A stretch of DNA of 64,000 bases, taken from positions 86,614,001-86,678,000 of the forward strand of contig NW_025963779.1 in assembly GCF_023055435.1 (NCBI RefSeq), read 5' to 3'. The notes under the pieces were generated by a model, which did not search any database, had not been told where the DNA came from, and saw only the letters and a list, made by a program, of their open reading frames with translations. The DNA comes from Haliotis rufescens (Eukaryota). A program made the position numbers and the translations under genes. Of the stretch, positions 13,723 to 53,523 are shown one piece after another. Within the stretch, counting starts at the first letter, position 1. Each line of letters starts with the position of its first letter.

Positions 13723-13854
13723 CTGTTTCGAAGAGAAATATAAAGCCAGTTTTAATATAACAGAATCATCTTGTACAAACAGCCAACGTAACAGCTACGT
13801 GTGGACTCGGTATGTATGTTATCAATGTGGACAACAACCCACGCATGGCTTGGG

Positions 13855-15452: not shown

Positions 15453-16247
15453 ATGGAAAAGTCAATGAACATGTTTTCCGAGGCATGCCTGACCAGTGAT
15501 GTGGCGCTTGTAGTCGAGGGTAAAAAGCTGCACGTGAACAAAACAGTACTTTCGATTGCATCTCCAGTCTTTGAAAAAATGTTCTTTGGGGAATTCAAAG
15601 AGAAAACCTTATTAGAAGTTCCCCTACCCGAGAAGACATACGACGACATGGTAGAGCTGCTTCTGTGCATTTACCCATCGACCACCCATCCGATCACAGC
15701 AGACAACATTGACGCACTACTTCCATTAGCGGAGGAATACCTTTTGACGTCACTAAAACAACGCTGTCGCACGTTTGTCACAACCTACCTGAAACTAAAT
15801 GTGAAAACTCTATCTAAGTCTCAGCTGGTACATTTCATGCATCTAGCAGACAAATATGACTTTGATGATGTCCTTGAGGATTGTCTGACCCAGGCTGTGT
15901 ACATTGAATACAGTGATGTCAATGGGCTACAAAACCAGGAGGGGTTCCAAGATCTCTGCGACAAGACAGCTGTCCAGTTCTTTAAGCGACGATTGGTGTT
16001 GGTGGAGGGACTTGTCAGACCGGTTTTGGAGAGCTCCACCACTGCTTCCGGGAACCTCCAAGAGGACTTCCAGACTATCATCAGCGGCAAGTGTAACGAG
16101 TTCTCCCACCGCCATGCAAGGCACGAATGTCGAGAATGTAAGGCTGTGTGTTGCGGGCGATGTCGGAAGCTCGGCACTGAAGCGATGGAAGATTTAGCTC
16201 ACGTTATCAAGAATATGCTGCCTGCTTTCAAAGAGTCTGAAAAGTGA
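15453..16247 (+). CDS. BTB/POZ domain protein type A, copy 1 (264 aa), C-terminal Cys/His cluster
   Basis: SDVALVVEGKKLHVNKTVLSIASPVFEKMFFGEFKE BTB signature; BACK-like helices; gccATGG Kozak context after a splice acceptor; AATAAA at 16331. Confidence 0.92.
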   Translation: MEKSMNMFSEACLTSDVALVVEGKKLHVNKTVLSIASPVFEKMFFGEFKEKTLLEVPLPEKTYDDMVELLLCIYPSTTHPITADNIDALLPLAEEYLLTSLKQRCRTFVTTYLKLNVKTLSKSQLVHFMHLADKYDFDDVLEDCLTQAVYIEYSDVNGLQNQEGFQDLCDKTAVQFFKRRLVLVEGLVRPVLESSTTASGNLQEDFQTIISGKCNEFSHRHARHECRECKAVCCGRCRKLGTEAMEDLAHVIKNMLPAFKESEK

Positions 16248-16910
16248 TCGTTTTACAAGTCAGACGTACATTTTGATCTTAGGATACGGACATTCACCGA
16301 ACAATTGAGAATGTCAGTAATGAATTGGAGAATAAATCATGTATCGCCTCATCAATAGCACAAAAGCAAAATCAAGGCGACCTGTAAATAAACGAGACCT
16401 GGCCAACCATTGGCTTAACACCGATCCATAGTTTCCATGTACATACTCAAACAGTTGACACCGGATCCTCATTTAAGTCGTCTTTTACACCAATCCTGTT
16501 TATTTGGGACGTCCACAACGAGGACTTTGTTAAAGACAAATTGTGGGACACGTGAATGTTGTTAATCCTCGTGTATTGTCATCGTGCATAATCATCAGTT
16601 TGACGGCAGTATGTTTTATTTAGTCCTATACGATGTTTTGAGAACTTTATGTTTGATACACGCGTGAATCATATTATACATGTATGCATCTGAAAAAGAA
16701 ATAGGTGTTCTTGTTTTTGTAATATGCCAGGTCAAATGTTGAAATGCTAGCTGTCTTCTAAGCTTCAGCACCATTACCTTCAGGAACGTTCAGTCTTATA
16801 TTGTACTGTGTACGTGAAATAACAGGACGGCAGTAGTATGTAGGCAGTACTTTGGATCTGCGTACACGACTTGTGCCACTACGTCGGTGGCATCACATTG
16901 AATTATACTA

Positions 16911-17132
16911 CACTGCCGGGCAAAAGAAAGTATACTTATGGTTGATGGTGGCTTAATTGAAAAAACAAGAACTGGTTATTCGATAGTGATGTATTTGAAA
17001 CGGGTATCACAGTTGTGTTTTGGGCCTTAAGTTTGCAGTGTTTCGGCGACTGTTTTCAGCCTAGTAACGTTTTGATAACGTTTGTAATATTTCGGCAAAA
17101 TCCATTTTGCAGGTGTCTTTTGCCCGGCAGTT
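16911..17132. mobile_element. Tc1/mariner-type MITE (orthologues 36007-36228, 50681-50902)
   Basis: TIRs cactgccgggcaaaaga / tcttttgcccggcagtt, with TA on both sides. Confidence 0.8.
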
Positions 17133-17921
17133 TACACTAAGCAATAACAACAGTTTAGTTTCACGTTGTGTCAGAGACCATGTGAGCTATGCTTCAGCCC
17201 AGGGATGTCATGCAACTAAGTCCTCCGGTCCACATACATATGCCAGAGTTTTACAAATTCGCATAAATCTTGATTTTTAGCAGTTCATATCTCTTGTAAA
17301 TAGAATGTTTGACATATAATTATCAAACGTCAGCGTCAAAGAATAGTCAGCGTCGATTGTCTGAGGAAACAGATTCCTTTGGGCGTAAAAAGCAAAATCG
17401 GTGTGAAAATGATATGAATGGATCACTGTAAATCAGTGATGGCACCAGGTGTTCATGATATGAACAGTTTTACTGTGACAGAATCATCTTGTTCAAACAG
17501 CCGACGCTACAGCTTCGCAAGGACTCTTTGTGTATGTAATGTATATGTACAAAAAACACCTCACGACATTGGCTATTTATAGCGACCTCGTACTAGTGTT
17601 GTCATGCTTAAACCTGTATAAACACGTGACACTATCGACGAACGTACTCTTTAAGTGCATACATTCAAGAGCAGATAACTCTGAACATTATTCGCCACAG
17701 TTTTGATGCAAATTCCACTTCCTGCTGTAAAGTGCCTGGTGTCTGCGTTGTGGTCTGTGGCCTTGGTGACTGCCTACTCGCCACCCTGCTCAAGAGATAC
17801 AAGGTTGACGATAGTGAGTATAACATGACAGTGGCCTGGCACCATGTGACTAGTGTACAATACTGTTCACTGCCGGAGACGCTTCCTCAGTTTTATCCGG
17901 AAGTATATTCTATTGTTTTGA

Positions 17922-18091
17922 GGGGCGGTCGGGTAACCTAGTGGTTAAAGCGTTCGCTCGTCACGCCGTAGACCCTGGTTCGATTCCCGACAAGGGTACA
18001 ATGTGTGAAGCCCATTTCTGTTGTCTCCTGCCGTGATATTGCTGGAATATTGCTTAAAGCGACGTAAAACCATACTCACTCACTCACTCAC
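17922..18091 (+). mobile_element. tRNA-derived SINE in the BTB-B intron (orthologues 37086-37231, 51621-51789)
   Basis: A and B boxes, (ACTC)n tail, TSD tctattgttt. Confidence 0.85.
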
Positions 18092-19197
18092 TCTATTGTT
18101 TCGACACCCTGGCGGTTTTTATGAATAAACGGATTCGGATTCTCGTATGCTGTGTATTCTCAGAAAAAACACCATCGGTGGTACATGAGTATACATTACA
18201 ATACAGTTCCTAAGGCCTAAATAACATACAAGTAGGGATCCTAGACGATTGCGTAATGTTGCCGTCTGATGAAAAAAAAGAAAACTACTATTAGATCTAC
18301 CATTAAAAAAGGGTTTGATTCTAAACAAAGTATCAAAATATACACACATTACGGGAAAAAATAGTTTCACAGGTGTGAATTAACTGTTAATTGAATAAAA
18401 CTATTATATCTGTCTGTGACAGCTGGCTTATTCACTCACCTAAAAAAACAACGAAAACACATTTAAGTACCGAACTAATGCAGTTAATATTTTCATAAAA
18501 TATGTTTTCACCTCAGTATACAATAAGAAATAGTATGAATAATGATAAAGTATTTAAGAATAATGAAAAAACACCAGACTCTGCCCAAACAAGTAAATGG
18601 TCCACCAGTGTGTGGAGCTCATGGGCGTCTGCTACACCAAAATATGATATTTCCTTACAACTATTAATAAATGACTTGGTCTTCATGATATAGCTACCCC
18701 AGAGAATAGTATTTAGAGTTATATCCCCTCACTTTCTTGACAACTTGTTTTTCAGCAGTACATAGTTATTGCCTGACGCCGAACATGCAGTCATGCGACA
18801 ACTCCGAAGTAGATGTCTTGATCAATTTGAGAATGTGCTTTACGAATCTTGACCCCCATAATATAAAGCTCAAAGTGTGCTAAGAATACAAATTATGAAA
18901 GGTAATACGTCAAATTGTGTGCATCTGTTCAAAAGCCGAAGACAATATTAGCGGGAAGACATGATTAATAAACAAAAGTCTGTTTTTCGTGTGCAACTCA
19001 ATGCCAACAAACCACTTTTTACCAATATTCAGTCACATTACCTGTCGAGATGAGTGTATTTGGCCAAAGCTGAAACGTCAAAAAAACACGAAAAGGAAAT
19101 TAACTGTCCAAAAACCAACTCTCAGTGGCGCGTATGTGATCGCATGACACCGTCGTCTCATGCTCCTAATATAGAATTTCTTATTACAGAAGCGGTC

Positions 19198-19827
19198 ATG
19201 GAAAATTCTGAGAACATGTTTTCCGAGGAATCCCTGACAAGTGATGTGGCGCTTGTAGTCGAGGACCAAAAGCTGCACGTGAACAAAACGGTACTTTCGC
19301 TTGCATCTCCAGTCTTTGAAAAAATGTTCTTTGGGGAGTTCAAAGAGAAAACCTTATTAGAAGTTCCGCTACCCGGGAAGACATACGACGACATGGTAGA
19401 GCTGCTACTGTGCATCTACCCATCGACCGCCAATCCGGTCACAGTAGACAACATTGACGCACTACTTCCACTAGCGGAGGAATATGCAATGATGTCTCTA
19501 ATGCAACGCTGTCGCAGGTTTGTAAAGACCTACCTGAAACTACACGTGCGAACTTTATCCAAGTCTCAGCTGGTACATTTCATGCATCTAGCAGACCAAT
19601 ATGACTTTGATGATGTCCTTGAGGATTGTCTAGCTCGGGCTGTGCACATTGAATACAGTGGCACTAATGGGCTACAACACCAGGAGGAGTTCCAAGATCT
19701 CAGTGACAAGGCGGCTGTCCAGTTCTTTAAGCGGCGATTGGTGTTGATGGAGGGACCTGACAGACCGGTGGTGGCAAAAGCCGCCCCTACTGCGTTTATG
19801 AGATACCCAAAACCAGTAGTGAATTGA
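19198..19827 (+). CDS. BTB/POZ protein type B, copy 1 (209 aa), lacking the Cys/His tail
   Basis: BTB signature; ATG after the acceptor tttcttattacag; C-terminus replaced relative to B2. Confidence 0.85.
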   Translation: MENSENMFSEESLTSDVALVVEDQKLHVNKTVLSLASPVFEKMFFGEFKEKTLLEVPLPGKTYDDMVELLLCIYPSTANPVTVDNIDALLPLAEEYAMMSLMQRCRRFVKTYLKLHVRTLSKSQLVHFMHLADQYDFDDVLEDCLARAVHIEYSGTNGLQHQEEFQDLSDKAAVQFFKRRLVLMEGPDRPVVAKAAPTAFMRYPKPVVN

Positions 19828-20344
19828 TGAATGAAGTGTGTTTCGCTGCAGTCAGTAGCATAATAGCTATATCAAGGCGACCTGTAAATAATCGAGTCCT
19901 GGACATGCTCAAACAGTAGACACCGGATCTTAATTTAACTCGTCTCTAACAACAATCCTGTGTTACTAGGCACATACATAAGGAGGCATTAAAGACAAAT
20001 TGTATACAACTATATAAGAGGTTCTTTGACAATAGGTCTGAGTGAAACTGTTGACATCGAATATGTTTCAGTTCTCTGTTGCTTATGTATATTAAAAGTT
20101 ATTTCACAGAACGTCTAATCACAAGGATCACAATGTATGTTAGAACCAATTTCCCTTCATCAAGTTTTTTTTTATCTAAGTTACAATCACTTTGCCTTCT
20201 CATGTTCAAGATTTTCACAAAGTAAAGGGTAAAATTATGTGTTGTTTGATTGTTTATTTGTCGTATCTCTGCCTTACTTCAAAACGTCTTTACGTTGATA
20301 GATGGGACAAGAAAGGATTTCAGAGAAACTTAGCCTTATTTTTT

Positions 20345-20710
20345 TGTTTTGTTTGTTGTTTAACGCCGGACTCAGCAATAGTCCAGCTATATGACGGCGG
20401 TCTGTAAATAATCGAGTCAGGACCAGACAATCCAAGGATTGATATCATGAGTATCGATCCACGCAATTGGGATACGATGACATGCATCAACCAAGTCAGC
20501 GAGCCTGACCACCCGATCTCGTTAGTCGCCTCTTACGACAAGCATAATCGCCTGTTACGGAAAGCATGGGTTGCTGAAGACCTATTCGAACTCGGATCTT
20601 CACGGGGTGAGACAAGCATGGGCTGCTGAAGACCTATTCGAACTCGGATCTTCACGGGGTGAGACAAGCATGGGTTGCTGAAGACCTATTCTTCCCCAGA
20701 TCTTCACGTG
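20345..20710 (-). mobile_element. Short retroposon with three tandem 52-bp 5' head repeats and (AAAC)n tail (orthologue 54036-54405; truncated 39735-39832)
   Basis: aagcatggg recurs at 20562, 20614 and 20666. Confidence 0.7.
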
Positions 20711-20754
20711 TTCCTTCTATAATAAGCTGGCTTATGACCAGACCCCGATTTCTC

Positions 20755-23700
20755 CATAAATTAATTCCATAAACCAGAGGATGCAATGTGTTGATAGCAT
20801 TGACAGTAAATTAACTATGATTGACAATAAGCTGACATCTCTCGACATTACAATGATAGAGACAACACTTCGCGTTGATAAGCTTGAAGCCTGTGTGAGA
20901 GAGACTGCATCAGAAAACAAAAAGCTGAAACAACAGGTACGGGAGCACGCTCTATGAGAGATAATCTACTCTTTCACGGGATCCCGAAAATGCCTGGAGA
21001 AGAACCTAAAGAGGTAATTAAATGTTTCTTAAAGAAAGAAATGAAGTGTGACACAGACATTCACCTCTTACGTGTACATAGGATTGGCCCTCACTTATCT
21101 AACAGACCACGTACTATAGTGGCAAAATTTGCAAATCCAGACGAACGGTGGGAAATCCTGACTAACACAAGACAGCTGAGAGAAACGCAATTCGGTGTTA
21201 GTGAACAATTTCCTCAAGAGATTGTGCAGAGACGAAGAGATCTACTCCCCATTTTCAAGGAAGCAAGGAGGCGTGGTTTGAAGTCTAACCTCACTGTAGA
21301 CAGACTGTATATAGACGGGAGACGTGTGTACCCAGGAGACGACCCGTTTATAGATCTCACCCCACGAGGCCCTCCCCCCAGCAGGAGATCATACGCGAGT
21401 GGCGTCGGTCGGTCAGACAACAGACAACCAAACAAGATGGCCAGGACTGAGGACACGGGAGAAAACAGGCCGCGGTAGGAGAATAACGGAGGTCAGCAAA
21501 TACGTGAGTCGCCTAACAGTGAAAACGTAACTTCCCACGAGAAACTTAAGATACTGTCTCTTAATGTGTGTGGTATTAGGACAAAGATGTTGAACCCCGA
21601 TTTTGTGAACGATGTGTCCAGATACGATATACTGTGTCTGACTGAAACTAAAACGTGTGATTTAGATGCTGTGAACATCCCAGGATTCTCAGTTCATATG
21701 AATAACAGAACTAACGCACTGAACACACGTGTGTCTGGCGGGATCATTGTAGCCATCAAAGAGACACTATTTGACATGTCAAGGTGAGCGTCATCGAAAA
21801 GATACATGATATTGTTTTATGGTGTAAGATACCAAGTGATTACCTGCATGTTAACGATGACCTTATCCTAGGAACTGTCTATATACCACCAGAGCAAAGT
21901 AGATTTCATTCACCGGAAATATTTACTACACTAGAAAATGATATCATTCGTATGTCAAACTGCTCACAGTACATGTGTATTGTTGGTGATATGAATTGTC
22001 GTACTAAAAATCTTCCGGATTTTATCATTTTGGACGAATTTTTATGTGACAATGATATTACTGACGAGGAATTATTGTTTTCAAATGTACAACTTCTAGT
22101 TGACAACGGTGTAAAATTAGATAGAATATCAATGGATACTGAAACAAACTGTAACGGGTATAAACTCCTAGATTTATGTAAAAATAACCGGCTGTATATT
22201 GTGAATGGAAGATTAGGCAAAGACAAGGGTATTGGTAAACTGACATGCAGAAATGCCAGTGTTGTCGATTATTGTATTGCATCAGCAGAAACATTCCCAT
22301 TATTAATAGATTTTGAGGTGCAGGAGTTTGACCCGATCTCGTCCGATGCACACTGTGGCTTATCGTTAACGTTAGATTGTACAGCACAACTGTCTCCAGT
22401 TATAGATGATGACAAAGATGTACATGTACAAAAAGTTGTAAAAAGATGGGTTCCTGATAAAAGTGAAACATTTTTATGTATCGATAAGGTTGCCATTACC
22501 CATCAGTGTACAGAATTAGATGCATGTAAAGACCAAATAGAGCCAAATGACATTAACCAAATTGTAAATAAACTCTCTCAGACGCTGGTTACTGCGGCTG
22601 AAACTACTCTAGGTACTGTAAGAAATTCTAGACACTCTGTACATAAGCACAAGCATAAACCCTGGTTTGATGAAAAATGTAAATCATCACGTAGATTTTA
22701 CCACAAGCGTAAACGTATATATGGAAGGACTAAAGACAGTAATAGCAAAGCTATGTACATTTCAGCTAGTAGAGCTTATAGTAAAACCCTATAGAAGGCA
22801 TTTAAGACATATCAAAACAAATGTGTCCAACAACTGAGGGAATGTAAGGATAGTAACCCTAAGAATTTTTGGGAAATTTTAAAATCATTTGAACCAAAGA
22901 AAACAGCAGAAATAATCAGTATTGACAAATTTTTCGAATTTTTTAAAGACCTTAATCAAAGTTCTGATGATAATGACGATGTTTTTGCCAATAACACATA
23001 TTATGATAATCATGATGATATCTTAGATTGTAGGATTACAGAAGAAGAAATTATGTCAGCTGTCCGTGCATTGAAGAACAATAAGGCTTGTGGGTTGGAT
23101 GGTATTTACAATGAGTACATTAAAAGCTCTATTCAAGTTATGATGCCGGTTTACGTGAGTTTTTTAACCTCGTTTTTGACACTGGAGTTTTACCTGAAGC
23201 TTGGCTTGTTGGCAAAATAAAACCAATCTACAAAAACAAAGGAAACCAAGCTGACCCAGACAATTACAGAGGTATTTCTATCCTAAGCTGTTTAGGTAAA
23301 TTGTTCACTACACTATTGAATAATCGTTTACAAGCTTACTCAGTTCAGACTAATCTGATAAGCGAAGCGCAAGCAGGATTAAGGAAAAAATACTCAACAA
23401 TTGACAATATGTTTATTCTTAAAGCTCTCATTGATATCTATAGAAATCTTAATAAGAAGTTGTATTGTGTTTTCGTCGATTTTAGCAAAGCTTTCGATAC
23501 AGTATGGAGGTGTGGTCTGTGGACAAAAATGATAAAGTCTAATATCAAAGGAAAATGTTTTAATGTCATATATAATATGTATCAAAATATCAAATCTTGT
23601 GTTTCACATAATAACAAGGTGTCAGGTTTCTTCCCATGTCAAACTGGTGTAAGACAAGGTGAAAATTTGTCACCTTTCCTGTTTGCTTTGTACCTTAATG

Positions 23701-25064
23701 ACCTTGAACAATTTTTATCTGAAAATGACTTTGAAGGACTGCATAATGTAAATAACCTTTTAATAGATTCACTTGAACTGTACATAAAACTTTTTATCAT
23801 TCTGTATGCCGATGATACTGTTTTAATGGCCGAAAGCCCAGAAGATTTAAGAAAGTGTCTCACTATATTTGAAGAATATTGTACTATCTGGAAACTTAAA
23901 GTCAATGTTGACAAATCGAAAGTTGTTATTTTTGCCAAGCGCTCCACAAATAGAGTCAGTTTTATGTTAAATGACTCGATTCTTCATGTTGTTAAAGAAT
24001 ATGTTTACCTTGGTATTTTATTTACAAACACTGGTAGATTCTGTAGGGCACTAAAGAGACTGACAGATCAGGCATCTAGAGCAATGTACGCTGTATTTCG
24101 TAAAATTAGAATATTAGAAATTCCTATTGACTGTCAACTGAAATTATTTGATTAACTTGTTCAGCCTGTATTGTTATATGGATCTGAGGTGTGGGGTTTT
24201 GAAAATGCTGTTTTCATTGAACGTGTACATCTTAAATTTTGTAAATATATTCTCAAGTTAAAACAGTCAACACCCGATTACATGGTATATGGTGAACTAG
24301 GGAGGTATCCTCTCAGCATTTTCATTAAGATAAGAATGATTTCATATTGGTGCAAGCTAACATCATCACAAACTAGCCTTTCTAGTATAGTATATAAACT
24401 TATGTTTCAAGTGTCCATTGCAAATCCAGATTACCATTTCCCACTATTAAAAGAAGTAAAATGCATTCTTCAAAATATAGGCTTTAATTACATTTGGCTG
24501 TCTCAAACCTTTATTAGTGCCGCATGGTTGAAACAAAATGTGAAACATGTTCTCATTGATAATTTTCTGCAAAGATGGCGAGAATCAAAGGAAAATTCAT
24601 CTAAAGGTTACTATTATAACATGTTTAAAGAGTTACCATCTCTAGAACCTTATTTACTAGAACTACCAATCACCCAACGCATCTCTCTTGCTCGTTTTAG
24701 AACAGCAAATCATAGATTACCTATTGAAACAGGAAGATGGTATAATATTGTGAGAGAGGAAAGAAAATGTACATTGTGTAAAATTTTTATATGTGATGAA
24801 ATGCACTTTTTATTAGAATATCCAAAACTCTCAGAAATTAGAAACAAGTTTTTGCCTCAGTACTACTGTATGTATCCTTCTGCCGTAAAATTCTCCCATT
24901 TGATGTCCATTACTTATAAGCCAATTCTATTAAAACTGGCAAGTTATATAAGATCATGTATGGAAATGTTCCACTGAAATGTTTTCTTCATTGTATCTAA
25001 TTCCTGTGTCCAATTACATCTCTGTATCACTGCCGTTATTTACGAGAATAAACATTATTCATTC
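20755..25064 (+). mobile_element. Non-LTR retrotransposon (LINE; ORF1 + APE-RT ORF2; tentatively RTE-X-like), inactivated
   Basis: ORF1 coiled coil + SMRDNLLFHGIP (RRM-like); APE motifs LSLNVCG, TET, GDMN, DY, SDAH; RT FVDFSKAFD, GVRQGENLSPFLF, YADD; C-terminal RLPIETGRW..C..C..DEMH; AATAAA + (ATTC) tail; stops and frameshifts. Confidence 0.95.
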
Positions 25065-25333
25065 AGCAACAGTCCTGGTGTTAGGATCTCAGTAACGGTG
25101 GCGCCAGGTACGACTGGAGGGCAAAACATTCGTTCAGTGAGATTTGTTGCATGTTTGTTATGCCAATGTATAATTATTTTTTTCTTGTGGTGCATACGTG
25201 CAGTTTGTTGTATGTTGATACAGTATACTGTCGTGATTGTCAAGACCCAGGCTCGTGGCCCGCCCTCGCTATACAGCCTTAGAACATGAAGCCATGCCGT
25301 CCAACGGCTAATGGAGCCTAGATTAGATTGTGC

Positions 25334-26190
25334 CCCTATATACAGCTCCTACTACCTGGAGCAGGTTGCCACTCTCCCTATATACAGCTCCTACTACCTG
25401 GAGCAGGTTGCCACTCCCCCTATATACAGCTCCTACTACCTGGAGCAGGTTGCCACATCCCCTTTATACAGCTCCTACAACCTGTAGCAGGTTGCCACTC
25501 CCCCTTTATACAGCTCCTATAACTTGGAGCAAGTTGCCACTCCCCCTTTATACAGCTCCTATAACTTGGAGCAAGTTGCCACTCCCCCTTTATACAGCTC
25601 CTACAACCTGGAGCAAGTTGCCACTCCCCCTTTATACAGCTCCTACAACCTGGAGCAAGTTGCCACTCCCCCTTTATACAGCTCCTATAACTTGGAGCTG
25701 GTTGCCACTCCCCCTTTATACAGCTCCTACAACCTGGAGCAGGTTGCCACTCCCCCTTTATACAGCTCCTATAACTTGGAGCTGGTTGCCACTCCCCCTT
25801 TATACAGCTCAAAACACCTGGAGCCGGTTTCCACACACCTGTTATACAGCTCCTACTACCTGGAGCAGGTTGCCACTCCCCCTTTATACAGCTCAAAACA
25901 CCTAGAGCCGGTTTCCACACACCCGTTATACAGCTCCTACTACCTGGAGCAGGTTGCCACTCCCCTTTATACAGCTCAAAACACCTAGAGCCGATTTCCA
26001 CATACCCTTTATACAGCTACTACGACTTAGCAGGTTGCCACACCCCCTTTATACAGCTGAAAACACCTAGAGCCGATTTCCACACACCCTTTATACAACT
26101 CCTACTACCTGGATCAGGTTGCCACATCCCCTTTATACAGCTCCTACAACTTGGAGCAGGTTGCCACTCCTCCTTTATAAAGCTCATCCA
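25334..26190. repeat. 42-bp minisatellite, about 20 copies, with variant units
   Basis: Same unit plus the variant ctcaaaacacctagagccg(g/a)tttccacacacc. Confidence 0.96.
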
Positions 26191-34100: not shown

Positions 34101-34546
34101 CATTTGATTATCGATCAGATTATTTCGACTGGCGCCGTCATTTTGTTTGAAGCAAACGCAAGTGATATGAGAGGTGGAATCTGATTGGTTAATAGGAGGG
34201 TTATAGAAGGAACGTAACTCGTAATAGCCACTGGTGGCGCAACGATCGAGAAATGCCACTCTAGTTCGGCGAGGGTAGGTTTTTACAGTCAGTTGACACC
34301 TTGCTTCGGGAGGAAGCAGCTATACATGTACTGTGCATATAAATAAATGTAAATGTACAAAAAACAAACAAACTGTTATTTGGTGATTATTTCAAAGATT
34401 ATTTTGTCAGGCATTGAATAATTCGTCGTGGATAGGGTCTTGGAGAAAGTCTGAAGTCATCGCTATGCTTGTTTCACGACAAGAACACGGAGCTGTGCGA
34501 AAGAAATTTTCAAATGTTTCTAAACTTTCTCATTACAGAAGCGGCC

Positions 34547-40309: not shown

Positions 40310-43300
40310 CCCCTGTATACAGCTCCTACTACCTGGAGCAAGTTGCCACTCACCCTATATACAGCTCCTACAACCCGGAGCAGGTTTCCGCTCCCCCTTT
40401 ATACAGCTCCTACAACCTGGAGCAGGTTGCCACTCCCCCTTTATACAGCTCCTACAACCTTGAGCAGGTTGCCACTCCCCCTTTATACAGCTCAAAACAC
40501 CTAGAGCCGATTTCCACACACCCGTTGTACAGCTCCTACAGGAGCCTAGATTAGATTGTGCCCCTGTATACAGCTCCTACTACCTGGAGCAGGTTGCCAC
40601 TCCCCCTATATACAGCTCCTACAACCCGGAGCAGGTTGCCACTCCCCCTTTATACAGCTCCTACAACCCGGAGCAGGTTTCCGCTCCCCCTTTATACAGC
40701 TCCTACAACCTGGAGCAGGTTGCCGCTCCCCCTTTATACAGCTCCTACAACCTGGAGAAGGTTGCCACTCCCTCTTTATACAGCTCCTACAACTTGGAGC
40801 AGGTTGCCACTCCCCCTATATACAGCTCCTACAACCTGGAGCAGGTTGCCGCTCCCCCTTTATACAGCTCCTACAACCTGGAGCAGGTTGCCGCCCCCCC
40901 TTTATACAGCTCCTACAACCTGGAGCAGGTTGCCACTCCCCCTTTATACAGCTCCTACAACCTGGAGAAGGTTGCCACTCCCCCTTTATACAGCTCCTAC
41001 TACCTGGAGCAGGTTGCCACTCCCCCTATATACAGCTCCTACAACCCGGAGCAGGTTTCCGCTCCCCCTTTATACAGCTCCTACAACCTGGAGCAGGTTG
41101 CCGCTCCCCCTTTATACAGCTCCTACAACCTGGAGCAGGTTGCCACTCCCCCTTTATACAGCTCAAAACACCTAGAGCCGATTTCCACACACCCGTTGTA
41201 CAGCTCCTACAACCTGGAGCAGGTTGCCGCTCCCCCTTTATACAGCTCCTACAACCTGGAGCAGGTTGCCACTCCCCCTTTATACAGCTCAAAACACCTA
41301 GAGCCGATTTCCACGCACCCTTTATACAGCTCCTACAACCTGGAGCAGGTTGCCACTCCCTCTTTATACAGCTCCTACAACCTGGAGAAGGTTGCCACTC
41401 CCTCTTTATACAGCTCCTACAACCCGGAGCAGGTTGCCACTCCCCCTATATACAGCTCCTACAACCTGGAGCAGGTTGCCGCTCCCCCTTTATACAGCTC
41501 CTACAACCTGGAGCAGGTTGCCGCTCCCCCTTTATACAGCTCCTACAACCTGGAGCAGGTTGCCACTCCCCCTTTATACAGCTCCTACAACCTGGAGAAG
41601 GTTGCCACTCCCCCTTTATACAGCTCCTACTGCCTGGAGCAGGTTGTCACTCCCCCTTTATACAGCTCAAAACACCTAGAGCCGATTTCCACACACCCTT
41701 TATACAGCTCCTACAACCTGGAGAAGGTTGCCACTCCCCCTTTATACAGCTCAAAACACCTAGAGCCGATTTCCACACACCCTTTATACAGCTCCTACAA
41801 CCTGGAGCAGGTTGCCACTCCCCCTTTATACAGCTCCTACTGCCTGGAGCAGGTTGTCACTCCCCCTTTATACAGCTCAAAACACCTAGAGCCGATTTCC
41901 ACACACCCTTTATACAGCTCCTACAACCTGGAGAAGGTTGCCACTCCCCCTTTATACAGCTCCTACTGCCTGGAGCAGGTTGCCACTCCCCCTTTATACA
42001 GCTCCTACAACTTGGAGCAGGTTGCCACTCCCCCTTTATACAGCTCCTACAACCTGGAGCAGGTTGCCACTCCCCCTTTATACAGCTCAAAACACCTAGA
42101 GCCGATTTCCACGCACCCTTTATACAGCTCCTACAACCTGGAGCAGGTTGCCACTCCCCCTTTATACAGCTCCTACAACCTGGAGCAGGTTGCCACTCCC
42201 CCTTTATACAGCTCCTACTGCCTGGAGCAGGTTGTCACTCCCCCTTTATACAGCTCAAAACACCTAGAGCCGATTTCCACACACCCTTTATACAGCTCCT
42301 ACAACCTGGAGAAGGTTGCCACTCCCTCTTTATACAGCTCCTACAACCTGGAGAAGGTTGCCACTCCCTCTTTATACAGCTCCTACAACTTGGAGCAGGT
42401 TGCCACTCCCCCTATATACAGCTCCTACAACCTGGAGCAGGTTGCCGCTCCCCCTTTATACAGCTCCTACAACCTGGAGCAGGTTGCCACTCCCCCTTTA
42501 TACAGCTCCTACAACCTGGAGAAGGTTGCCACTCCCCCTTTATACAGCTCCTACTGCCTGGAGCAGGTTGTCACTCCCCCTTTATACAGCTCAAAACACC
42601 TAGAGCCGATTTCCACACACCCTTTATACAGCTCCTACAACCTGGAGAAGGTTGCCACTCCCCCTTTATACAGCTCCTACTGCCTGGAGCAGGTTGTCAC
42701 TCCCCCTTTATACAGCTCAAAACACCTAGAGCCGATTTCCACACACCCTTTATACAGCTCCTACAACCTGGAGCAGGTTGCCACTCCCCCTTTATACAGC
42801 TCCTACTGCCTGGAGCAGGTTGTCACTCCCCCTTTATACAGCTCAAAACACCTAGAGCCGATTTCCACACACCCTTTATACAGCTCCTACAACCTGGAGA
42901 AGGTTGCCACTCCCCCTTTATACAGCTCCTACTGCCTGGAGCAGGTTGCCACTCCCCCTTTATACAGCTCCTACAACTTGGAGCAGGTTGCCACTCCCCC
43001 TTTATACAGCTCCTACAACATGGAGCAAGTTGCCACTCCCCCTTTATACAGCTCAAAACACCTAGAGCCGATTTCCACGCACCCTTTATACAGCTCCTAC
43101 AACCTGGAGCAGGTTGCCACTCCCTCTTTATACAGCTCCTACAACCTGGAGAAGGTTGCCACTCCCCCTTTATACAGCTCCTACTGCCTGGAGCAGGTTG
43201 TCACTCCCCCTTTATACAGCTCAAAACACCTAGAGCCGATTTCCACACACCCTTTATACAGCTCCTACAACCTGGAGCAGGTTGCCACTCCCTCTTTATA

Positions 43301-43390
43301 CAGCTCCTACAACCTGGAGAAGGTTGCCACTCCCTCTTTATACAGCTCCTACAACCTGGAGCAGGTTGCCACTCCTTTATAAAGCTCATC
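40310..43390. repeat. 42-bp minisatellite, about 73 copies, with higher-order structure
   Basis: Same unit; the variant pattern recurs at a 966-bp offset. Confidence 0.97.
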
Positions 43391-43678
43391 CAACATAGAT
43401 CAGGCGACCCAGGGTTGCCACACCCGGCCCCTTACATGATTTTATGCGACCCAGGCGACCAAACGTCTTCACCGCCCCCAGAACCTAATAGTAATGATTT
43501 CCGTATTCTCCTTTTAGATTGGCCGTAGAATGGTATGGTTGCCCAAACTGTTGTCCCCTTTCAACCATCAGTCTAACCTTGACCAGAATATCCCTCGATT
43601 TCCGCTCTATACCGCTCATCGAACCTAGATCCAGGCTCTGCACCCCTTCACCCCTAATAGAGCCTACATCCAGGCTGT

Positions 43679-43710
<32 letters not shown>

Positions 43711-46704
43711 CCCCCTTCACCCTCGCTAGAACCTAGATCCAGGCTGCACCCCATTCTCATTCGAATTCACCCTCATAGAGCCTAGATCAAGGTTGCACCC
43801 CATTCTCCCCACCCCCCACCCCCACCCTTCACCCCTCATAGAGCCTAGATACATGCTGCACCCCCTCCCTCTTCAGCCCTCAGATACACATACAAACGTC
43901 AAAAGAAGTAGAGGTTCGAAGTAAAACGTTAGCTTGACCCTGTGCTGAGATCACGAGGGTCGGAACATGGCGGACACCTGACAGGAAGTACAATCTCAGC
44001 CCTGTACCACAATGCTCTGCTTCCTGCTAGTGATGACCTCACGTACATCAAGTCACCTCACTGTAGCAGAGCTCCACGAATTGTAGATTAGAAACGGCTT
44101 CTTTCAGTAGACTAATCGGATTTACGCTTAACTCAGCTTTGCAAAAGCTGGCTAGACGTAGATGATTTGTTCTTGTCTATTTATTTCACCTTTCGTTGTG
44201 TAAATACCATCTACGTCATTCTATGTATATGTACATAATACGCGCGTATGTGTGTGCGTGTGTGTGTGTGCATGTGCGTGTGTGCGTGTGTGTACATCAT
44301 GTTAATAGACATTTGTATCATTATCCGTCAATGTAAATATATATTTCCGGACAGATCAAAAAACTTTTTAAATGGTAAATTAAGTCATGAAGCTGTCATA
44401 CCCACCTCCTTAACAATGATGGCTGCAAAGCGAAACAACAGGTTCTATTATTAAGATTCATCGACTCACCAATTCATCCCGATATCAAAAACAACGCTAC
44501 GATACACAACAAGCTACGGGTGGGTAATTGAATGGGGAAATATTCAATATTTAACTGTTTTACACACTTCACATATTCTACAAGCTTACAGACACACTTG
44601 TTTTCTATTTATAGACCGGGGCGGTGGAGTAGCCTAGTGGCTGAAGCGTAAGATCGTAACGCCGAAGTCCTGGGGCTCGATTTGCCGCGTGGGTACAGTG
44701 TGTGAATTCCATGCCAGGTGTGATATTGCTGGAATATTCCTAAAAGCGGCGTAAAACCATACGCACTCACTACCAGCTGTTGACGTGTAAATTAAAATTA
44801 ATAATGTGAAACAAAATTCCCACACTAATTTCATGGTTGTGATATTATGCTATAGGCGGGAAAGATAGATCCATATGACCATCACCATCACTTATTTTGC
44901 TATTTGGTTAAAAAAAACGGATTGATTTCAACGTTATGAAAATATGTGGGCATGTATAACCATTTTGCTCAGCTTGGCCCATAGAGAGATTCTGGTCAGT
45001 AAGACTTTTTATTTTCATTAAATCGTGTTTGAAAACGTGTAGTTTGGGAAGATGTGGGGTCCGCCTCTACATATGATGTTGACAGTGACAACCAGGACTA
45101 GGTGTTGAGTGAGTGAGTGAGTGAGTGGTTGAGTGACCTTTTCGACAATATTTGAGTTATATCACGGCGACTCAGCTTAATGTGGGAGGCACATCCGAAG
45201 TGATGCAGGTCGTAGATGTTCATTGCCTTGGTCAAACCCACGAACATGAGTATCGTGTCGACAAACCTAGAAACCTAATCAGGGCGGATCGGGGTGTGCA
45301 ACCAGTGATCAAAGGTTTCTCGAAGGCCTCTGCACAGCGAATTGGCCTATGATCACAGGTATGGTGCTGAGAAACCTAGAAACATAATCGGGACGATCCG
45401 GGATTCGAACCCACAATCATAAGTCTCTGGTGTGCGCAAGGGACGCAACTCTGCACAGCGAATCGCGGCGCCTTAGACGACTGGGCCACCCAAGGGCATT
45501 TAGGGTGTAGTGTGATAGATTATGGTTCAACATCGAGTGACATGTTCCCCGATGATGATGAATGTCTCTGTAAATTATTATTTAAAAACTAAAGATAACT
45601 CATACCTTATTAATTAAACTAATATATGAAGGTCGGTTATTATAATCTACTAAACAATACAGTGTAGTCCAACATGTAATTGGGTGACTGTGAACAGTAC
45701 AAACCGCTACGAGCGTGGGGAAATGCATGGAACGCATGGGTCTTGCTCTGTGCATAAAACACAAGATTGTGCAGTGAGCGTGTTCTTGCTGCACCTGTGA
45801 AAGGGTTTTCTCTTCTTGTTGGTGGTGTGGTCGAGTGACAACTTCTCTTCCTTGTACACTGTTCTTGTGAAATATTAAAAACTCTTCTTTATTTCGCTTT
45901 CCGTATACACAACACTTCCTGACATGAGTGAGAACGAGTTATTGTCTTGTGAGTGAGCAGTGTTTTACGCCCTTGAACGGTTTTTCATTTACTTCACAGC
46001 GTGCAAGCTTTATGTGGGAGAAACCCGCGTGAAGCCCATTTCTGGTGTCCCCCGCCCTGATATTACTGGAATATTGGCGTAAAACCATACTCACTCACTC
46101 ACTCACTCACTCAAATGTAAATATTTCAATGAACAAAGGGACATGTACATCCAAAACACTATTTAAAAAGACCAAACGTGTTACAACTCCAGCAATTATT
46201 TAACTGCCATAAGTTATTATTCCAAAACTAACTATGTAAATTTGTAAACATTATAACGAAATTGTAAAAACTCTCGGTTAACCTCTGTCCACCGCAATGT
46301 AAAATACTGATTGTACCTTATGTGCCGATGGGCTCGGCCTGAGAGAAAAGTGCTGTTCTGTTTTGTTCTGGTATTCTGGAGCTCTTTGTGTCCTCCATAT
46401 TTCGTCAACTCCGGCTGAATGATATCACCAGTTGAACTTCTTACAGCGCGGATATCTTCCCTCACCTATACAAACCGAACACCTATATACCAGTAGTTGT
46501 GTGAAAATTGATGTGTATAATTTTAACAAGAACATTTTGTACAACTATTAAGTGAGTGAATAGATTTCAAACTGTCATCGACTGTTTACGGGGTGCTGGA
46601 GCAAGCAAACCAGTGGTTGATAGTGTGAGACTCAAACTGCACAAACAGGCACCGTGACACTCAGCCTTCCATAAAAGTGCACATTCTTCCTTGATTTCCG
46701 CGTA

Positions 46705-46877
46705 CAGTAAACTACGGGCATAACGAAATCAAAGGGGCCAGAAATTTTAGTTCGTTATAAGCGTAGTTCGTTATAAGAATATACACAGCATATATATGAC
46801 AAATGATCGGGACCAAACAATGCGTTCGTTATCATTAGTTCTTTAAAGAGCGTGTTCGTTATAAACATAGTTTACAG
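46705..46877. mobile_element. pogo/Tc1-like MITE (orthologue 32029-32189; region deleted in unit 1)
   Basis: TA|cagtaaactacgggcataacgaa ... ttcgttataaacatagtttacag|TA. Confidence 0.65.
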
Positions 46878-49221
46878 TAACTGCATCTATCTGGTGGACA
46901 CAAATGGACAACAACAGGCAGATTTAAGCCTTGCAACGTTTTCCTATCGTTTGTAATTTGTTGGTCAAATCCAATTTTCAAGGGACCATTTTCTTTTGTC
47001 CAGCAGATCACATAATTCAATAACAGTAGTTCAGATTCATGTGGCACCAAAGACGATCTGAGCTTTAGTTCACCCCAGTGGTGTCAAAGGTAGACTATAG
47101 ATATAGATTATAGTTAAAAATCCCCGGTCCATATACATAGGAGTTTCACGCCGCACTAAGCAATATTTCAGCTATTTGACGGCGGTCTGTAAATAATCGA
47201 GTCTGGAGCAGACAATCCAGTGATTGGCATCATGATCATCGATCCACGCAATTTGGATAGTTTTACGATGACATGCATCAACCAAGTCAGCGAGTCTGAC
47301 CACCCGATCCTGTTAGTCGCCTCTTACGACAAGCTCGTCACCACTTGGCTAAAAATAATGCCAATGTGACGTTACATTTTAACACACTCACTCACTCTCA
47401 CAACAAGGAAAGTCGCTTTTTACGGCAGGCATGGGTTGCTGAAGATCAATTCAAACCCGTATCTTCACCGGTATGTTTCGAAGAGAAATATAAAGCCAGT
47501 TTTAATATAACAGAATCATCTTGTTCAAACAGCCAACGTTACAGCTACGTGTGGACTCGGTATGTATGTTATCAATGTGGACAACAAGCCCCGCCTGGCG
47601 TGGGCTATTTATAACCACCCCGTTCTCGTGTCCTCACACTCAAACATTTTACAGACGATTCATTGAGTAATGAATGGAACACAAGTTTTTTGTTAAAAAG
47701 TAAATGCATACATTAACAACGATGTTTGTTTCATTGGAATAATACTTTTGAAAACATAACACGACTAGTGTTTCTAAACGGCGAGTTGGTTATTTCACAA
47801 ATCAAACGTTGTTTGCACGTAGAGATCGATTTAGCGCCTGACTCATATCAAGAGCACATAACTCTACACAATATTCGCAAGTGTTGATTCAATTATTCGG
47901 TAGAGCTCCTGCTAGCTGTACAAAGCCAGTGTTCCCTCCGTTGGATTTAGCAATGTTGTCTTATATTAAAATATATAATACACCAAGCCGTTTACAGGTT
48001 AACCATATCTAAACAAGAACTGATTGAAATAGGACGCTGAAAGGGCAACGTGTATAGTACGTCGGCGATGAAGACTACGTTGTGCCTACGTTGTGTCGAC
48101 GTTGTGCCTACGTTGTGCCGACGTTGTGTCGACGTTGTGCCCACGTGCTACGCTGTAGTCTCGGTGACTGCCCACCCGCTGACTGACAGTACACGGAGGG
48201 CCACCCTGCCGAAGAGACACAAGGTAGACGATAGAACACACAGTGAGTATAACATGACAGTTGACCAACACCATGTGACAGTGGACAATACTGTTCACTG
48301 CCGGAGACGTTTCTCGGTTTTATCCGGGTGTATATTCTTTACACAGGCCACTGTCGTGTCTCACAGTTCACAGTTACTTTGTATGAAGACACTACAGTCT
48401 GTATCTCCATGTACGTTTATGTCAGCTGTCACTTCAGTGTGTGAAATCACAGGGACATATAATACACTCGATTGTCACTGACAGTAGCTCACAAGGTATC
48501 GCAGGCCATTTATGTTCTAATGCATAGTAAACGTTACAGCTACACCATCTTCCCGAGTCAAGGAAGTTAACTGACTATAAAAGTCCAGTTTCCACCCTCG
48601 CCGAACTAGGCTGAAATTATGGATTATTTTGGTCTATTGCAGGATTTGTAAAGCAAGTGTACCGCCAAATCGGCGTCAACAGATATTTTCCAAATTTTTT
48701 CAAGTTTTTTAATCAAGGCACTCATGCCATTTGATGCACTTCGCGAAGTAAGACCCGTTTTATCACAATAAATTTTGATTATCGGTCAGATCATCTCGAC
48801 TGCACGCCGTCATTTTGCATGAAGCAAACGCAGGTGATATGAGAGGTGGAATATGATTGGTCAATAGGAGGGACATAGAAGGATCGAGACTTGTAATAGC
48901 CACTGGTGGCGCAACGATCGAGTCTAGAAATGCCAGTCTAGTTCGGCGCGGGTAGGCTTTTACAGTCAGTTGACACCTTGCTTCGGGAAGAAGCAGCTAC
49001 ACATGTACTGTGTATATAATGTAAAATGTACAAAAAACAAACAAACTGTTATTTGGTGATTATTTCAAAGAACTTACGTTTTGTCAAGCATTGAATAATT
49101 CGTCGTGGATAGGGTCTTGGGGAAAGTCTGAAGTCATCGCTATGCTTTGTTTCACCACAAGAACATGGAGCTGTGCAAAAGAAATTTTCAAATGTTTCTA
49201 AACTTTCTCATTACAGCGGCC

Positions 49222-50013
49222 ATGGAAAAGTCAATGAACATGTTTTCCGAGGCATGCCTAACCAGTGATGTGGCGCTTGTAGTCGAGGGTAAAAAGCTGC
49301 ACGTGAACAAAACAGTACTTTCGATTGCATCTCCAGTCTTTGAAAAAATGTTCTTTGGGGAATTCAAAGAGAAAACCTTATTAGAAGTTCCGCTACCCGA
49401 GAAGACATACGACGACATGGTAGAGCTGCTTCTGTGCATTTACCCATCGACCACCAATCCGATCACAGCAGACAACATTGACGCACTACTTCCATTAGCG
49501 GAGGAATACCTTATGACGTCACTAAAACAACGCTGTCGCACGTTTGTCACAACCTACCTGAAACTAAACGTGAAAACTCTATCTAAGTCTCAGCTGGTAC
49601 ATTTCATGCATCTAGCAGACAAATATGACTTTAATGATGTTCTTGAGGATTGTCTGACCCAGGCTGTGTACATTGAATACAGTGATGTCAATGGGCTACA
49701 ACACCAGGAGGGGTTCCAAGATCTCTGCGACAAGACAGCTGTCCAGTTCTTTAAGCGACGATTGGTGTTGGTGGAGGGACTTGTCAGACCGGTTTTGGAG
49801 AGCTCCACCACTGCTTCCGGGAACCTCCAAGAGGACTTCCAGACTATCATCAGCGGCAAGTGTAACGAGTTCTCCCACCGCCATGCAAGGCACGAATGTC
49901 GAGAATGTAAGGCTGTGTGTTGCGGGCGATGTCGGAAGCTCGGCACTGAAGCGATGGAAGATTTAGCTCACGTTATCAAGAATATGCTGCCTGCTTTCAA
50001 AGAGTCTGAATAG
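49222..50013 (+). CDS. BTB/POZ protein type A, copy 3 (263 aa)
   Basis: Intact ORF, near-identical to A1. Confidence 0.92.
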   Translation: MEKSMNMFSEACLTSDVALVVEGKKLHVNKTVLSIASPVFEKMFFGEFKEKTLLEVPLPEKTYDDMVELLLCIYPSTTNPITADNIDALLPLAEEYLMTSLKQRCRTFVTTYLKLNVKTLSKSQLVHFMHLADKYDFNDVLEDCLTQAVYIEYSDVNGLQHQEGFQDLCDKTAVQFFKRRLVLVEGLVRPVLESSTTASGNLQEDFQTIISGKCNEFSHRHARHECRECKAVCCGRCRKLGTEAMEDLAHVIKNMLPAFKESE

Positions 50014-52893
50014 TGATCGTTTTACAAGTCAGACGTACATTTTGATCTTAGGATACGGACATTCACCAAACAATTGAGAATGTCAGTAATGAATTGGAGA
50101 ATAAATCATTTTTCATCTCAGTCAATAGCACAAAAGCAAAATCAAGGCGACCTGTAAATAAACGAGACCTGGCCAACCATTGGCTTAACACCGATCCATA
50201 GTTTCCATGTACATACTCAAACAGTTGACACCGGATCCTCATTTAAGTCGTCTTTTACACCAATCCTGTTTATTTGGGACGTCCACAACGAGGACTTTGT
50301 TAAAGACAAATTGTGGGACACGTGAATGTTGTTAATCCACGTGTATTGTCATCGTGCATAATCATCAGTTTGACGGCAGTATGTTTTATAGAGTCGTTTA
50401 CGATGTTTTGAGAACCCTATGTTTGATACACGCGTGAATCACATTATACATGTATTTAACTGAAAAAGAAATAGATGTTCTTGTGTTTGTAATATGCCAG
50501 GTCAAATGTTGAAATGCTAGCTGTCTTCAAAGCTTCAGCACCATTACCTTCAGGAACGTTCAGTCTTATATTATAATGTGTACATGAAATAACAGGTAAA
50601 TAACAGTATATAGGCAGTACTTTGGATCTGCGTACACGACTTGTGCCACTACGTCGGTGGCATCACATTGAATTATACTACACTGCCGGGCAAAAGAAAG
50701 TATACTTATGGTTGATGGTGGCTTAATTGAAAAAACAAGAACTGGTTATTCGATAGTGATGTATTTGATACGGGTATCATAGTTGTGTTTTGGGCCTTAA
50801 GTTTGCAGTGTTTCGGCGACTGTTTTCAACCTAGTAACGTTTTGATAACGTTTGTAATATTTCGGCAAAATCCATTTTGCAAGTGTCTTTTGCCCGGCAG
50901 TTTACACTAAGCAATAACAACAGTTTAGTTTCACGTTGTATCAGAGACCATGTGAGCTATACTTCAGCCCAGGGATGTCATGCAATTAAGTCCTCAGGTC
51001 CACATACATATGCCAGAGTTTTACAAATTCGGATAAATCTTGATTTTTAGCAGTTCATATCTCTGATAAATAGAATGTTTGACATATAAATATCAAACGT
51101 CAGCGTCAAAGAATAGGCATCAGGTGTTCATGATATGAACAGTTTTACTGTGACAGAATCATCTTGTTCAAACAGCCGACGCTACAGCTTCGCAAGGACT
51201 CTTTGTGTATGTAATCTATATGTAACAACAAACACCTCACGACATTGGCTATTTATAGCGACCTCGTAATAGTGTTGTCATGCTTAAACCTGTGTACAGA
51301 CGAATCAATTGGTATTGAATGGGACACATGTGACACTATCGACGAACGTACTCTTTAAATGCATACATTCAAGAGCAGATAAGTCTGAACATTAGTCGCC
51401 ACAGTTTTGATGCAAATTCAATTTCCTGCTGTGCCTGGTGTCTGCGTTGTGGTCTGTGGCCTTGGTGACTGCCTACTCGCCACCCTGCTCAAGAGATACA
51501 AGGTTGACGATAGTGAGTATAACATGACAGTGGCCTGGTACCACGTGACTAGTGTACAATACTGTTCACTGCCGGAGACGCTTCCTCGGTTTTATTCGGA
51601 AGTATATTCTATTGTTTTGAGGGGCGGTCGGGTAACCTAGTGGTTAAAGCGTTCCTCGTCCCGCCGAAGACCCGGGTTCGATTCCCGACATGGGTACAAT
51701 GTGTGAAGCCCATTTCTGTTGTCTCCTGCCGTGATATTGCTGGAATATTGCTAAAAGCGACGTAAAACCATACTCAGTCACTCCTTCACTCTATTGTTTC
51801 GACACCCTGGCGGTTTCTATGTATAAACGGATTCGGATTCTCGTATGCTGTGTATTATCAGAAAAAACACCATCGGTGGTACATGAGTATACATTACAAT
51901 ACAGTTCCTAAGGCTTAGATAACATACAAGTAGGGATCCTAGACGATTGCGTAATGTTGCCGTCTGATGAATAAAAAGAAAACTACTATTAGATCTACCA
52001 TTAAAAAAGGTTTGATTCTAAACAAAGTATCAAAATATACACACACTACGGGAAAAATTAGTTTCACAGGTGTGAATTAACTGTTAATTGAATAAAACTG
52101 TTATATCTGTCTGTGACAGCTGGCTTATTCACTCACCTAAAAAAACAACGAAAACACATTTAAGTACCGAACTAATGCAGTTAATATTTTCATAAAATAT
52201 ATTTTCACCTCAGTATACAATAAGAAATAGTTTGAATAATGACAAAGTATTTAAGAATAATGAAAAAACACCAGACTCTGCCCAAACAAGTAAATGGTCC
52301 ACCAGTGTGTGGAGCTTATGGGCGTCTGCTACACCAAAATATGATATTTCCTTACAACTATTAATGAATGACTTGGTCTTCATGATATAGCTACCCCAGA
52401 GAATAGTGTTTAGAGTTATATCCCCTCACTTTCTTGACAACTTATTTTATAGCAGTAAATAGTTATTGCTTGACGCCGAACATGCAGTCATGCGACAATT
52501 CCGAAATAGATGTCTTGATCAATTTGAGAATGTGCTTTACGAATCTTGACCCTCATAATATAAAGCTCAAAGTGTGCTAAGAATACAAATTATGAAAGGT
52601 AATACGTCAAATTGTGTGCATCTGTTCAAAAGCCGAAGACAATATTAGCGGGAAGACATGATTAATAAACAAAAGTCTGTTGTCGTGTGCAACTCAATGC
52701 CAACAAACCACTTTTTACCAATATTCAGTCACATTACCTGTCGAGATGAGTGTATTTGGCCAAAGCTGAAACGTCAAAAAATCACGAAAAGGAAATTAAC
52801 TGTCCAAAAACCAACTCTCGGTGGCGCGTATGTGATCGTATGAGACCGTCGTCTCATGCTCCTAATATAGAATTTCTTATTACAGAAGCGGTC

Positions 52894-53523
52894 ATGGAAA
52901 ATTCTGAGAACATGTTTTCCGAGGTATCCCTGACAAGTGATGTGGCGCTTGTAGTCGAGGACCAAAAGCTGCACGTGAACAAAACAGTACTTTCGCTTGC
53001 ATCTCCAGTCTTTGAAAAAATGTTTTTTGGGAAGTTCAAAAAGAAAACCTCATTAGAAGTTCCGCTACCCGGGAAGACATACGACGACATTGTAGAGCTG
53101 CTACTGTGCATCTACCCATCGACCGTCAATCCGGTCACAGTAGACAACATTGACGCACTACTTCCACTGGCGGAGGAATATGCAATGATGTCTCTAATAC
53201 AACGCTGTCGCAGGTTTGTAAAGACCTACCTGAAACTACACGTGCGAACTTTATCCAAGTCTCGGCTGGTACATTTCATGCATCTAGCAGACCGATATGA
53301 CTTTGATGATGTCCTTGAGGATTGTCTGGCTCGGGCTGTGCACATTGAATACAGTGGCACTAATGGGCTACAACACAAGGAGGAGTTCCAAGATCTCAGT
53401 GACAAGGCGGCTGTCCAGTTCTTTAAGCGGCGATTGGTGTTGGTGGAGGGACTTGACAGACCGGTGGTGGCAAAAGCCCCTACTACGTTTATGAGATACC
53501 CAAAACCAGTAGTGAATTGGTGA
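52894..53523 (+). CDS. BTB/POZ protein type B, copy 3 (209 aa), lacking the Cys/His tail
   Basis: Same C-terminal replacement as B1; extra substitutions (GEFKEK to GKFKKK). Confidence 0.82.
   Translation: MENSENMFSEVSLTSDVALVVEDQKLHVNKTVLSLASPVFEKMFFGKFKKKTSLEVPLPGKTYDDIVELLLCIYPSTVNPVTVDNIDALLPLAEEYAMMSLIQRCRRFVKTYLKLHVRTLSKSRLVHFMHLADRYDFDDVLEDCLARAVHIEYSGTNGLQHKEEFQDLSDKAAVQFFKRRLVLVEGLDRPVVAKAPTTFMRYPKPVVNW

Follow-up and report, generated by a model that had tools for sequence, protein, structure and literature searches.

In the red abalone, the mollusc Haliotis rufescens, a cluster of paired BTB genes on contig NW_025963779.1 raises the question of why neighbouring genes should share one half of their protein so closely and differ so strongly in the other, or lack it altogether. 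The stretch analysed here, termed the window, spans 64,000 nucleotides (positions 86,614,001 to 86,678,000 of the forward strand, assembly GCF_023055435.1), and its own numbering is used throughout. It contains six BTB reading frames on the + strand with ATGs at 15453, 19198, 34547, 38298, 49222 and 52894, in the order A-B, A-B, A-B given by the original prediction. A search of the species' own genome, in which the neighbouring stretches were examined too, makes the amplified array larger than had been noted: 12 BTB genes in six tandem A-B units on one contig. The window holds three of these units; the other six genes lie to its right, and the array runs to about window position 108,950. The genes are already annotated by RefSeq, which names a protein of the same contig 'BTB and MATH domain-containing protein 36-like' (names 36/38-like). 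On balance, the six A-B pairs encode small BTB-BACK proteins that are likely Cullin-3 adaptors, with a predicted zinc-stapled helical tail as the likely means of choosing the substrate. This tail is conserved in A and fast evolving or deleted in B. The best reading of the array is one of Cullin-3 adaptors in birth-and-death evolution. The parts of the array on which this rests are the following.

7548..64000 (in the window), + strand: tandem segmental array, with units starting near 7548, 25065, 40042 and 58885.
15453..16247, + strand: coding exon of A1, 264 amino acids, BTB-BACK with A-type Cys/His tail.
19198..19827, + strand: coding exon of B1, 209 amino acids, BTB-BACK intact, tail deleted with a junction near 19790.
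34547..35341, + strand: coding exon of A2, 264 amino acids.
38298..39089, + strand: coding exon of B2, 263 amino acids, full B-type tail.
49222..50013, + strand: coding exon of A3, 263 amino acids.
52894..53523, + strand: coding exon of B3, 209 amino acids, tail deleted, phi-x-E motif changed from F-K-E to F-K-K.

The first half of these proteins belongs to a familiar class. All four window copies scanned have a Pfam BTB match (E ~1e-23), and these four together with B6 score 84-87 bits against BTB/POZ (PF00651), whose gathering cut-off is 20.5. Two AlphaFold2 models, of B2 and A2 (mean predicted local distance difference test score, pLDDT, 79.8 and 79.5), comprise a confident BTB and helical region, a helix at residues 202-211, a low-confidence Cys/His loop and a helix at 235-260. 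The best Foldseek matches are Cul3 adaptors, and the best sequence match in the PDB is SPOP (E=1.4e-18). In the models, residues 6-190 superpose on SPOP 192-367 (Z 14.0, root-mean-square deviation 3.4, 170 aligned), and the tail therefore starts where SPOP ends; SPOP is tied structurally with KBTBD2, KLHL26 and KLHL3 (KLHL3 47-207, Z 13.2). Pfam BACK families remain below cut-off by sequence alone, and the 3-box/BACK helices after the BTB are present by structural alignment to SPOP and KLHL3. The phi-x-E motif F48-K49-E50 occurs in 10 of the 12 copies, the exceptions being B3 and B5, and its glutamate in 26 of 34 aligned relatives. M43..F48-K49-E50 aligns with M-E-E of SPOP and has the spacing of M78..M83-S84-E85 in KLHL3, where E85A is reported to disrupt Cul3 binding (PMC3616122). 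These likenesses suggest that the array proteins bind Cul3. No MATH domain was found in the 22 proteins scanned or in the four window copies, whose BTB starts at about residue 6, and the RefSeq name is a carry-over.

The second half is a segment of about 70 residues, helix-Cys/His-helix, that follows the BTB-BACK. Its sequences had been quoted exactly, and its ligand pattern is indeed kept between A and B, but with another spacing (x6-H-x2-H instead of x4/6-H-x-H): A and B2 align without gaps over C-x6-H-x2-H-x-C-x2-C-x3-C-C-x2-C. The B6 tail has a 2-residue insertion, and all eight ligand positions are retained in B2 and B6 despite a loop identity of 58%. From this pattern, the tail is predicted to bind zinc. 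A profile of the post-BTB half finds 25 relatives among 1.84 billion representatives; 10 of them were looked up, and the 9 that have names are all from molluscs. Ligands were counted in 34 sequences chosen for having a Cys tail: C214 is present in 34, H224 in 31, C234 in 33 and C237 in 33, and C226 and C229 in 6, all within the Haliotis clade. A loose version of the pattern occurs in 44 of 83 proteins scoring on the BACK profile, a redundant set in which many others are tail-less. Although the module had been proposed to be lineage-specific, its C..H..CxxC core is also found in other abalone paralogues and Gigantopelta, and scallops, oysters and ark clam contain a well-conserved BTB-BACK gene with a short four-ligand tail (P0051, P0053, P0066-P0072). 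Only the longer eight-ligand form is confined, among the matches, to this Haliotis clade. An exon-by-exon search of this genome, which may miss it, gave no close counterpart of the conserved bivalve gene, the best match having 31% identity; the bivalve gene would be a cleaner target for solving the structure of the module.

No Pfam family matched the tail at cut-off, and FYVE matches were sub-threshold only. The FYVE finger is an eight-cysteine domain with the motif R(R/K)HHCR. Weak matches to it (PF01363) appeared in four of the five tailed close homologues scanned (E 0.006-0.02) and in A1. They reach 15-17 bits where the cut-off is 27.8, and span 27-31 of the 67 positions of the profile (at most 13-46); the tail motif reads ARHECR, B2 has no match, and this identity was rejected. 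In the ESM Atlas, residues 170-264 of A2 gave no usable match, and a related fragment gave matches of 0.90-0.91 to BTB/BACK or unnamed clusters; neither outcome is evidence of novelty. Literature searches, with most subscription journals outside their coverage, found no description of the array or the tail. Related BTB genes also form local clusters elsewhere (L013-L017, L023 and L024 on contigs C24 and C388; L020-L021 on C46; L025-L030 on C79). These include genes with Cys/His tails of other kinds, naturally tail-less genes and genes interrupted by stops; C388 is a short contig similar to the C24 cluster, possibly a haplotig. P0004 of H. cracherodii combines an A-like BTB with a tail of a third type, which is about 55% identical to A and B alike; a gap of 5 residues in this BTB may come from an error of annotation or assembly.

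The BTB/BACK halves of A and B, described at first as nearly identical, are alike to a lesser degree, amino acid identity of A2 to B2 and B6 being 87-92% over residues 1-111 and 78-87% over residues 112-190. Their likeness stops at the domain border: synonymous divergence (dS) between A and B is 0.11-0.15 in codons 1-190 versus 0.40-0.45 in codons 191-262 (Fisher P 0.001 and 0.009). Over the 147 bases of codons 96-144, A2 and B2 differ at 2 positions, and B2 and B6 at 11. The longest run identical between A2 and B2 is 119 nt (pairwise test P=0.008), and codons 101-140 of B2, identical to those of A2, are a likely conversion tract. An earlier run-length test for conversion in B2 gave P=0.25; it was confounded by changes of the tail-less lineage, and the pairwise test was used instead. 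The dS step and the tract shared by A2 and B2 thus support gene conversion, which would act in the BTB-BACK part.

The two types of tail have had different histories. A tails differ by 0-3 of 216 bases in all 15 pairs of the six copies, and the 3' flanks of the same copies by about 4-6% in 14 of the 15 pairs; A3 and A5 have 0 differences in 570 nt. The A tail is 81% identical to H. rubra and 78% to H. asinina proteins, and a preprint places the split of H. iris and H. rufescens at ~40 million years ago and calibrates that of H. iris and H. rubra at more than 84.9 million years (10.64898/2026.01.03.697505). A tails are under strong purifying selection. When H. rubra and H. asinina are both taken as a valid reference, B2 has 31 tail changes of its own and A2 has 1, and no B-type tail was found in either species. 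The B2 and B6 tails differ at 21 of 72 residues, and 13 of the 21 differences alter charge. There are 24.5 non-synonymous and 3.5 synonymous differences, a ratio of non-synonymous to synonymous rates (dN/dS) of 2.1. The proportion of differing non-synonymous sites (pN) is 0.146, compared with 0.053 at 1940 non-coding sites (P=3e-5), and the synonymous counterpart (pS), 0.073, is not raised relative to non-coding sequence (P=0.32). A neutral simulation predicts 8.5 amino acid differences where 21 are seen (~2.5x; P=0.0002). In the BTB of the same pair, pN is 0.048, the non-coding rate. Positive selection on B tails is thereby moderately supported. The excess of amino acid change anticipated for the tails applies to the B lineage only, given purifying selection in A and an A-B tail dN/dS of 0.87.

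Deletion has been the other fate of the B tail. All six A copies are full-length, as are B2 and B6. B1, B3, B4 and B5 share a ~250-nt deletion running from about codon 199 into the 3' untranslated region (UTR). The tail losses noted for the array are thus real, but the tail is kept in one of the three window B copies (B2) and in two of six overall. The intron tree unites the four tail-less copies (support 100/99), and hence the deletion arose once and was then amplified. These copies keep the whole BTB-BACK; B3 and B5 have F-K-K at the F-K-E motif and so have lost the predicted Cul3-binding glutamate. Change proceeds at about the intron rate in three of the five pairs tested among B copies (for B1-B3, pN is 0.028 and the intron rate 0.028), and the pair B3-B6 lies marginally above it (P=0.05).

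As to expression, none of the runs holding the stretch, among 24 sequencing runs examined, is on record as RNA, and putative RNA here means contigs of four runs, from a single study, whose RNA origin is a guess. Such contigs cover the B2 exon and 3' UTR, three pieces of X1 matching at 0 differences, as over 38715-38942 and 38913-39033; one 771-nt contig covers the A2 exon (34574-35342) with 27 differences. Repeat-free bins such as 33558-33851, 35616-35909 and 36498-36791 are empty in all four putative RNA runs. Two contigs align from 39143 and 39171 onward, close to the deletion junction, after 97-106 unmatched letters, which may hint at tail-less transcripts.

Several observations weigh against the account given above. 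For the module itself, in the AlphaFold and Foldseek check suggested for the tail, its helices were modelled, the Cys/His loop block has a pLDDT of only 39-50, and fold searches of the full models were filled by the BTB part. With respect to conversion, A-B difference continues at roughly 13-50% per 60-base window in the 3' UTR, a step and not an isolated peak, and unrooted trees of BTB and tail proteins do not conflict in topology (p-AU 0.39, approximately unbiased test), which speaks against conversion as the only cause, so that the argument for conversion is one from DNA only. The case for selection on B tails draws on two intact B copies from one assembly. Their tail dN/dS is not significant against synonymous sites (Fisher P=0.34), and simulation at a local rate of 0.09 gives P=0.03. 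Without the indel-adjacent codons 215-223, pN falls to 0.109 (P=0.008 against all non-coding sites; P=0.08 against the 3' flank alone). Seven of 1778 overlapping non-coding windows reach the 28 differences of the tail, the top one starting at 39338. Finally, coding divergence of B1-B4 is below the intron rate (P=0.01), and not all tail-less pairs look neutral.

These points bear on the rival that survives best, a possible though rather unlikely one, in which A does the job and B is a redundant duplicate under relaxed selection, with tail deletion, LINE insertion and motif loss (LINE, long interspersed nuclear element) as steps of its decay. In its favour are the loss of the tail in four of six B copies with pN there at the intron rate, the BTB pN of B2-B6, the A-B tail dN/dS, the equally divergent non-coding patch and the failure to find a B-type tail in H. 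rubra or H. asinina. However, B2 and B6 have kept the frame and all eight ligands after a dS of ~0.4 from A, the amino acid excess over non-coding sequence survives most versions of the test, and putative RNA contigs lie over the B2 tail. An improbable alternative is that an uncollapsed haplotype in the assembly inflates the copy number and that the array has fewer than 12 genes. Units 3 and 5 match at 98.9% over 17.3 kb, and with the identity of A3 and A5 this could reflect either recent duplication or an uncollapsed haplotype. Among the remaining units, divergence is 2-10%, indels are numerous and insertions private to a unit occur, H. rubra likewise has 2-3 copies on one contig, and an artefact would alter the count, not the pattern. 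Quite improbable is a tail that serves as a structural, oligomerisation or localisation module (a helical hairpin or FYVE-like membrane finger) and not as a substrate site: it does extend a long helix (170-197), end in another (235-260), show the weak FYVE matches and go missing from many relatives, but those matches fall short as described, and the charge changes between B2 and B6 would fit a binding surface over a scaffold.

Under birth-and-death evolution of Cullin-3 adaptors, the events may be ordered as follows. An old A/B duplication was amplified later as a unit of 15-19 kb. Gene conversion would keep the ligase-binding half of A and B alike, ending at the domain border near codon 190. 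The A tails, near-invariant in the array and conserved across species, may serve a stable target, and the B tails may diversify under positive selection, like a recognition surface for a shifting target. One deletion removed the tail from the common ancestor of B1, B3, B4 and B5, copies which now probably drift, two of them without the predicted Cul3-binding glutamate. A bolder version, which we regard as highly doubtful, would make an undescribed mollusc zinc hairpin a substrate-recognition module of Cullin-3, with B of North Pacific abalone racing a target that changes, for example a protein of a pathogen, conversion matching its ligase half to that of A, and the amplified tail-less copies expressed as dominant-negative decoys that tune the ligase.

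Should the adaptor account hold, mollusc Cullin-3 adaptors would have a small Cys/His module for recognition that lies outside the families tested. The array would also be a natural experiment, in which near-shared ligase halves bear a frozen tail, a fast one or none, and therefore tail swaps can test substrate recognition directly. If positively selected and variable in copy number, it would be a candidate resistance locus in farmed, disease-prone abalone. Tandem birth and death of ubiquitin-ligase adaptors is a general pattern known in nematodes and plants.

Each segmental duplication of 15-19 kb that makes up the array includes a minisatellite. Tail-less units contain a LINE as well, which lies behind B1, B3, B4 and B5 and is absent behind B2 and B6. 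The genes had been described as having a single coding exon; an upstream exon is present, with a GT donor in 11 of the 12 genes, and the RefSeq models of B3 and B5 join it in frame. These elements are located as follows.

14433..14475, + strand: 3' part of the upstream exon of A1, donor GT at 14476, placed by homology with the B exon.
17732..17813, + strand: 3' part of the upstream exon of B1, followed by the intron 17814-19189; the N-terminus of RefSeq protein P0007/P0077 maps here.
Ends near 33568 (A2) and 48242 (A3), + strand: upstream-exon equivalents, mapped at the 3' end only.
Ends near 36977 (B2) and 51512 (B3), + strand: upstream-exon equivalents.
7928..8605, 25333-26192, 40310-43375 and 59152-59763: 42-bp minisatellite near the start of each unit.
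20446..25065, + strand: broken LINE-type retrotransposon behind tail-less B1 (RVT_1 E=1.8e-38).
54140-58885, + strand: second copy of the broken LINE, behind B3.

Upstream blocks at 13747-14571 and 17465-17911 are 73-82% alike between A and B, the remaining intron being unalignable, and probably represent promoter and first exon. The 3' fragment of a second LINE (29957-31103, - strand) is private to unit 2. The minisatellite reaches 73 copies at 40464-43525 (+ strand), where two frames are open over 972 and 992 codons; these are a by-product of a stop-free repeat unit and could mislead gene prediction. An open frame of 710 codons (2623-4752, + strand), rich in Thr, Ser and Pro and ending in a transmembrane-like segment and a short tail, probably forms the final exon of a gene for a mucin-like membrane protein; it has no Pfam match and is single copy within the 164 kb examined. 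Outside the array lie tandem repeats of 86 bp (5 copies, 1618-2045) and 29 bp (7 copies, 6792-6995).

Among known systems, the array proteins resemble the BTB-BACK Cullin-3 adaptors of the SPOP, KLHL and KBTBD type in the BTB and 3-box/BACK fold over residues 6-190 and in the phi-x-E motif. Unlike these, their coding exon contains neither a MATH nor a Kelch domain. With only ~14 residues ahead of the BTB core, they may have a shorter dimerisation arm than usual. Where SPOP ends, the array proteins continue into a Cys/His hairpin of ~70 residues. The FYVE domain is approached by the A-type spacing F-S-x4-R-H-x-C-R-x-C-x4-C-x2-C and a weak hidden Markov model match, but this match covers under half of the profile and the flanking CxxC pairs are absent. 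The array is thus a BTB-BACK member by fold and motif, not MATH-BTB and not FYVE.

In its divergence pattern, the array recalls the model of Teshima and Innan for neofunctionalisation under conversion: paralogues stay similar in the part under conversion and diverge strongly over the candidate functional region. In its published form, this signature is a local divergence peak (PMC2588116). The array shows a step that persists through the 3' UTR instead of a peak with converted sequence on either side, and this is weaker evidence.

With the MATH-BTB and F-box adaptors of nematodes and grasses, the array shares local tandem expansion and birth-death turnover, and Caenorhabditis BTB-only proteins of 176-182 amino acids were among the matches. 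Thomas (2006) reportedly found the ligase-binding half of expanded adaptor families conserved and the substrate half fast evolving. In contrast to MATH-BTB proteins, the array has its variable module at the C-terminus and no MATH domain. Unstable, tandemly expanded ubiquitin-ligase adaptors are described in nematodes and plants, where a role in defence is hypothesised on indirect evidence (PMC1866355, PMC4091423). The array works like these expanded families, and the role in defence or stress suggested for it by the original prediction is a putative one.

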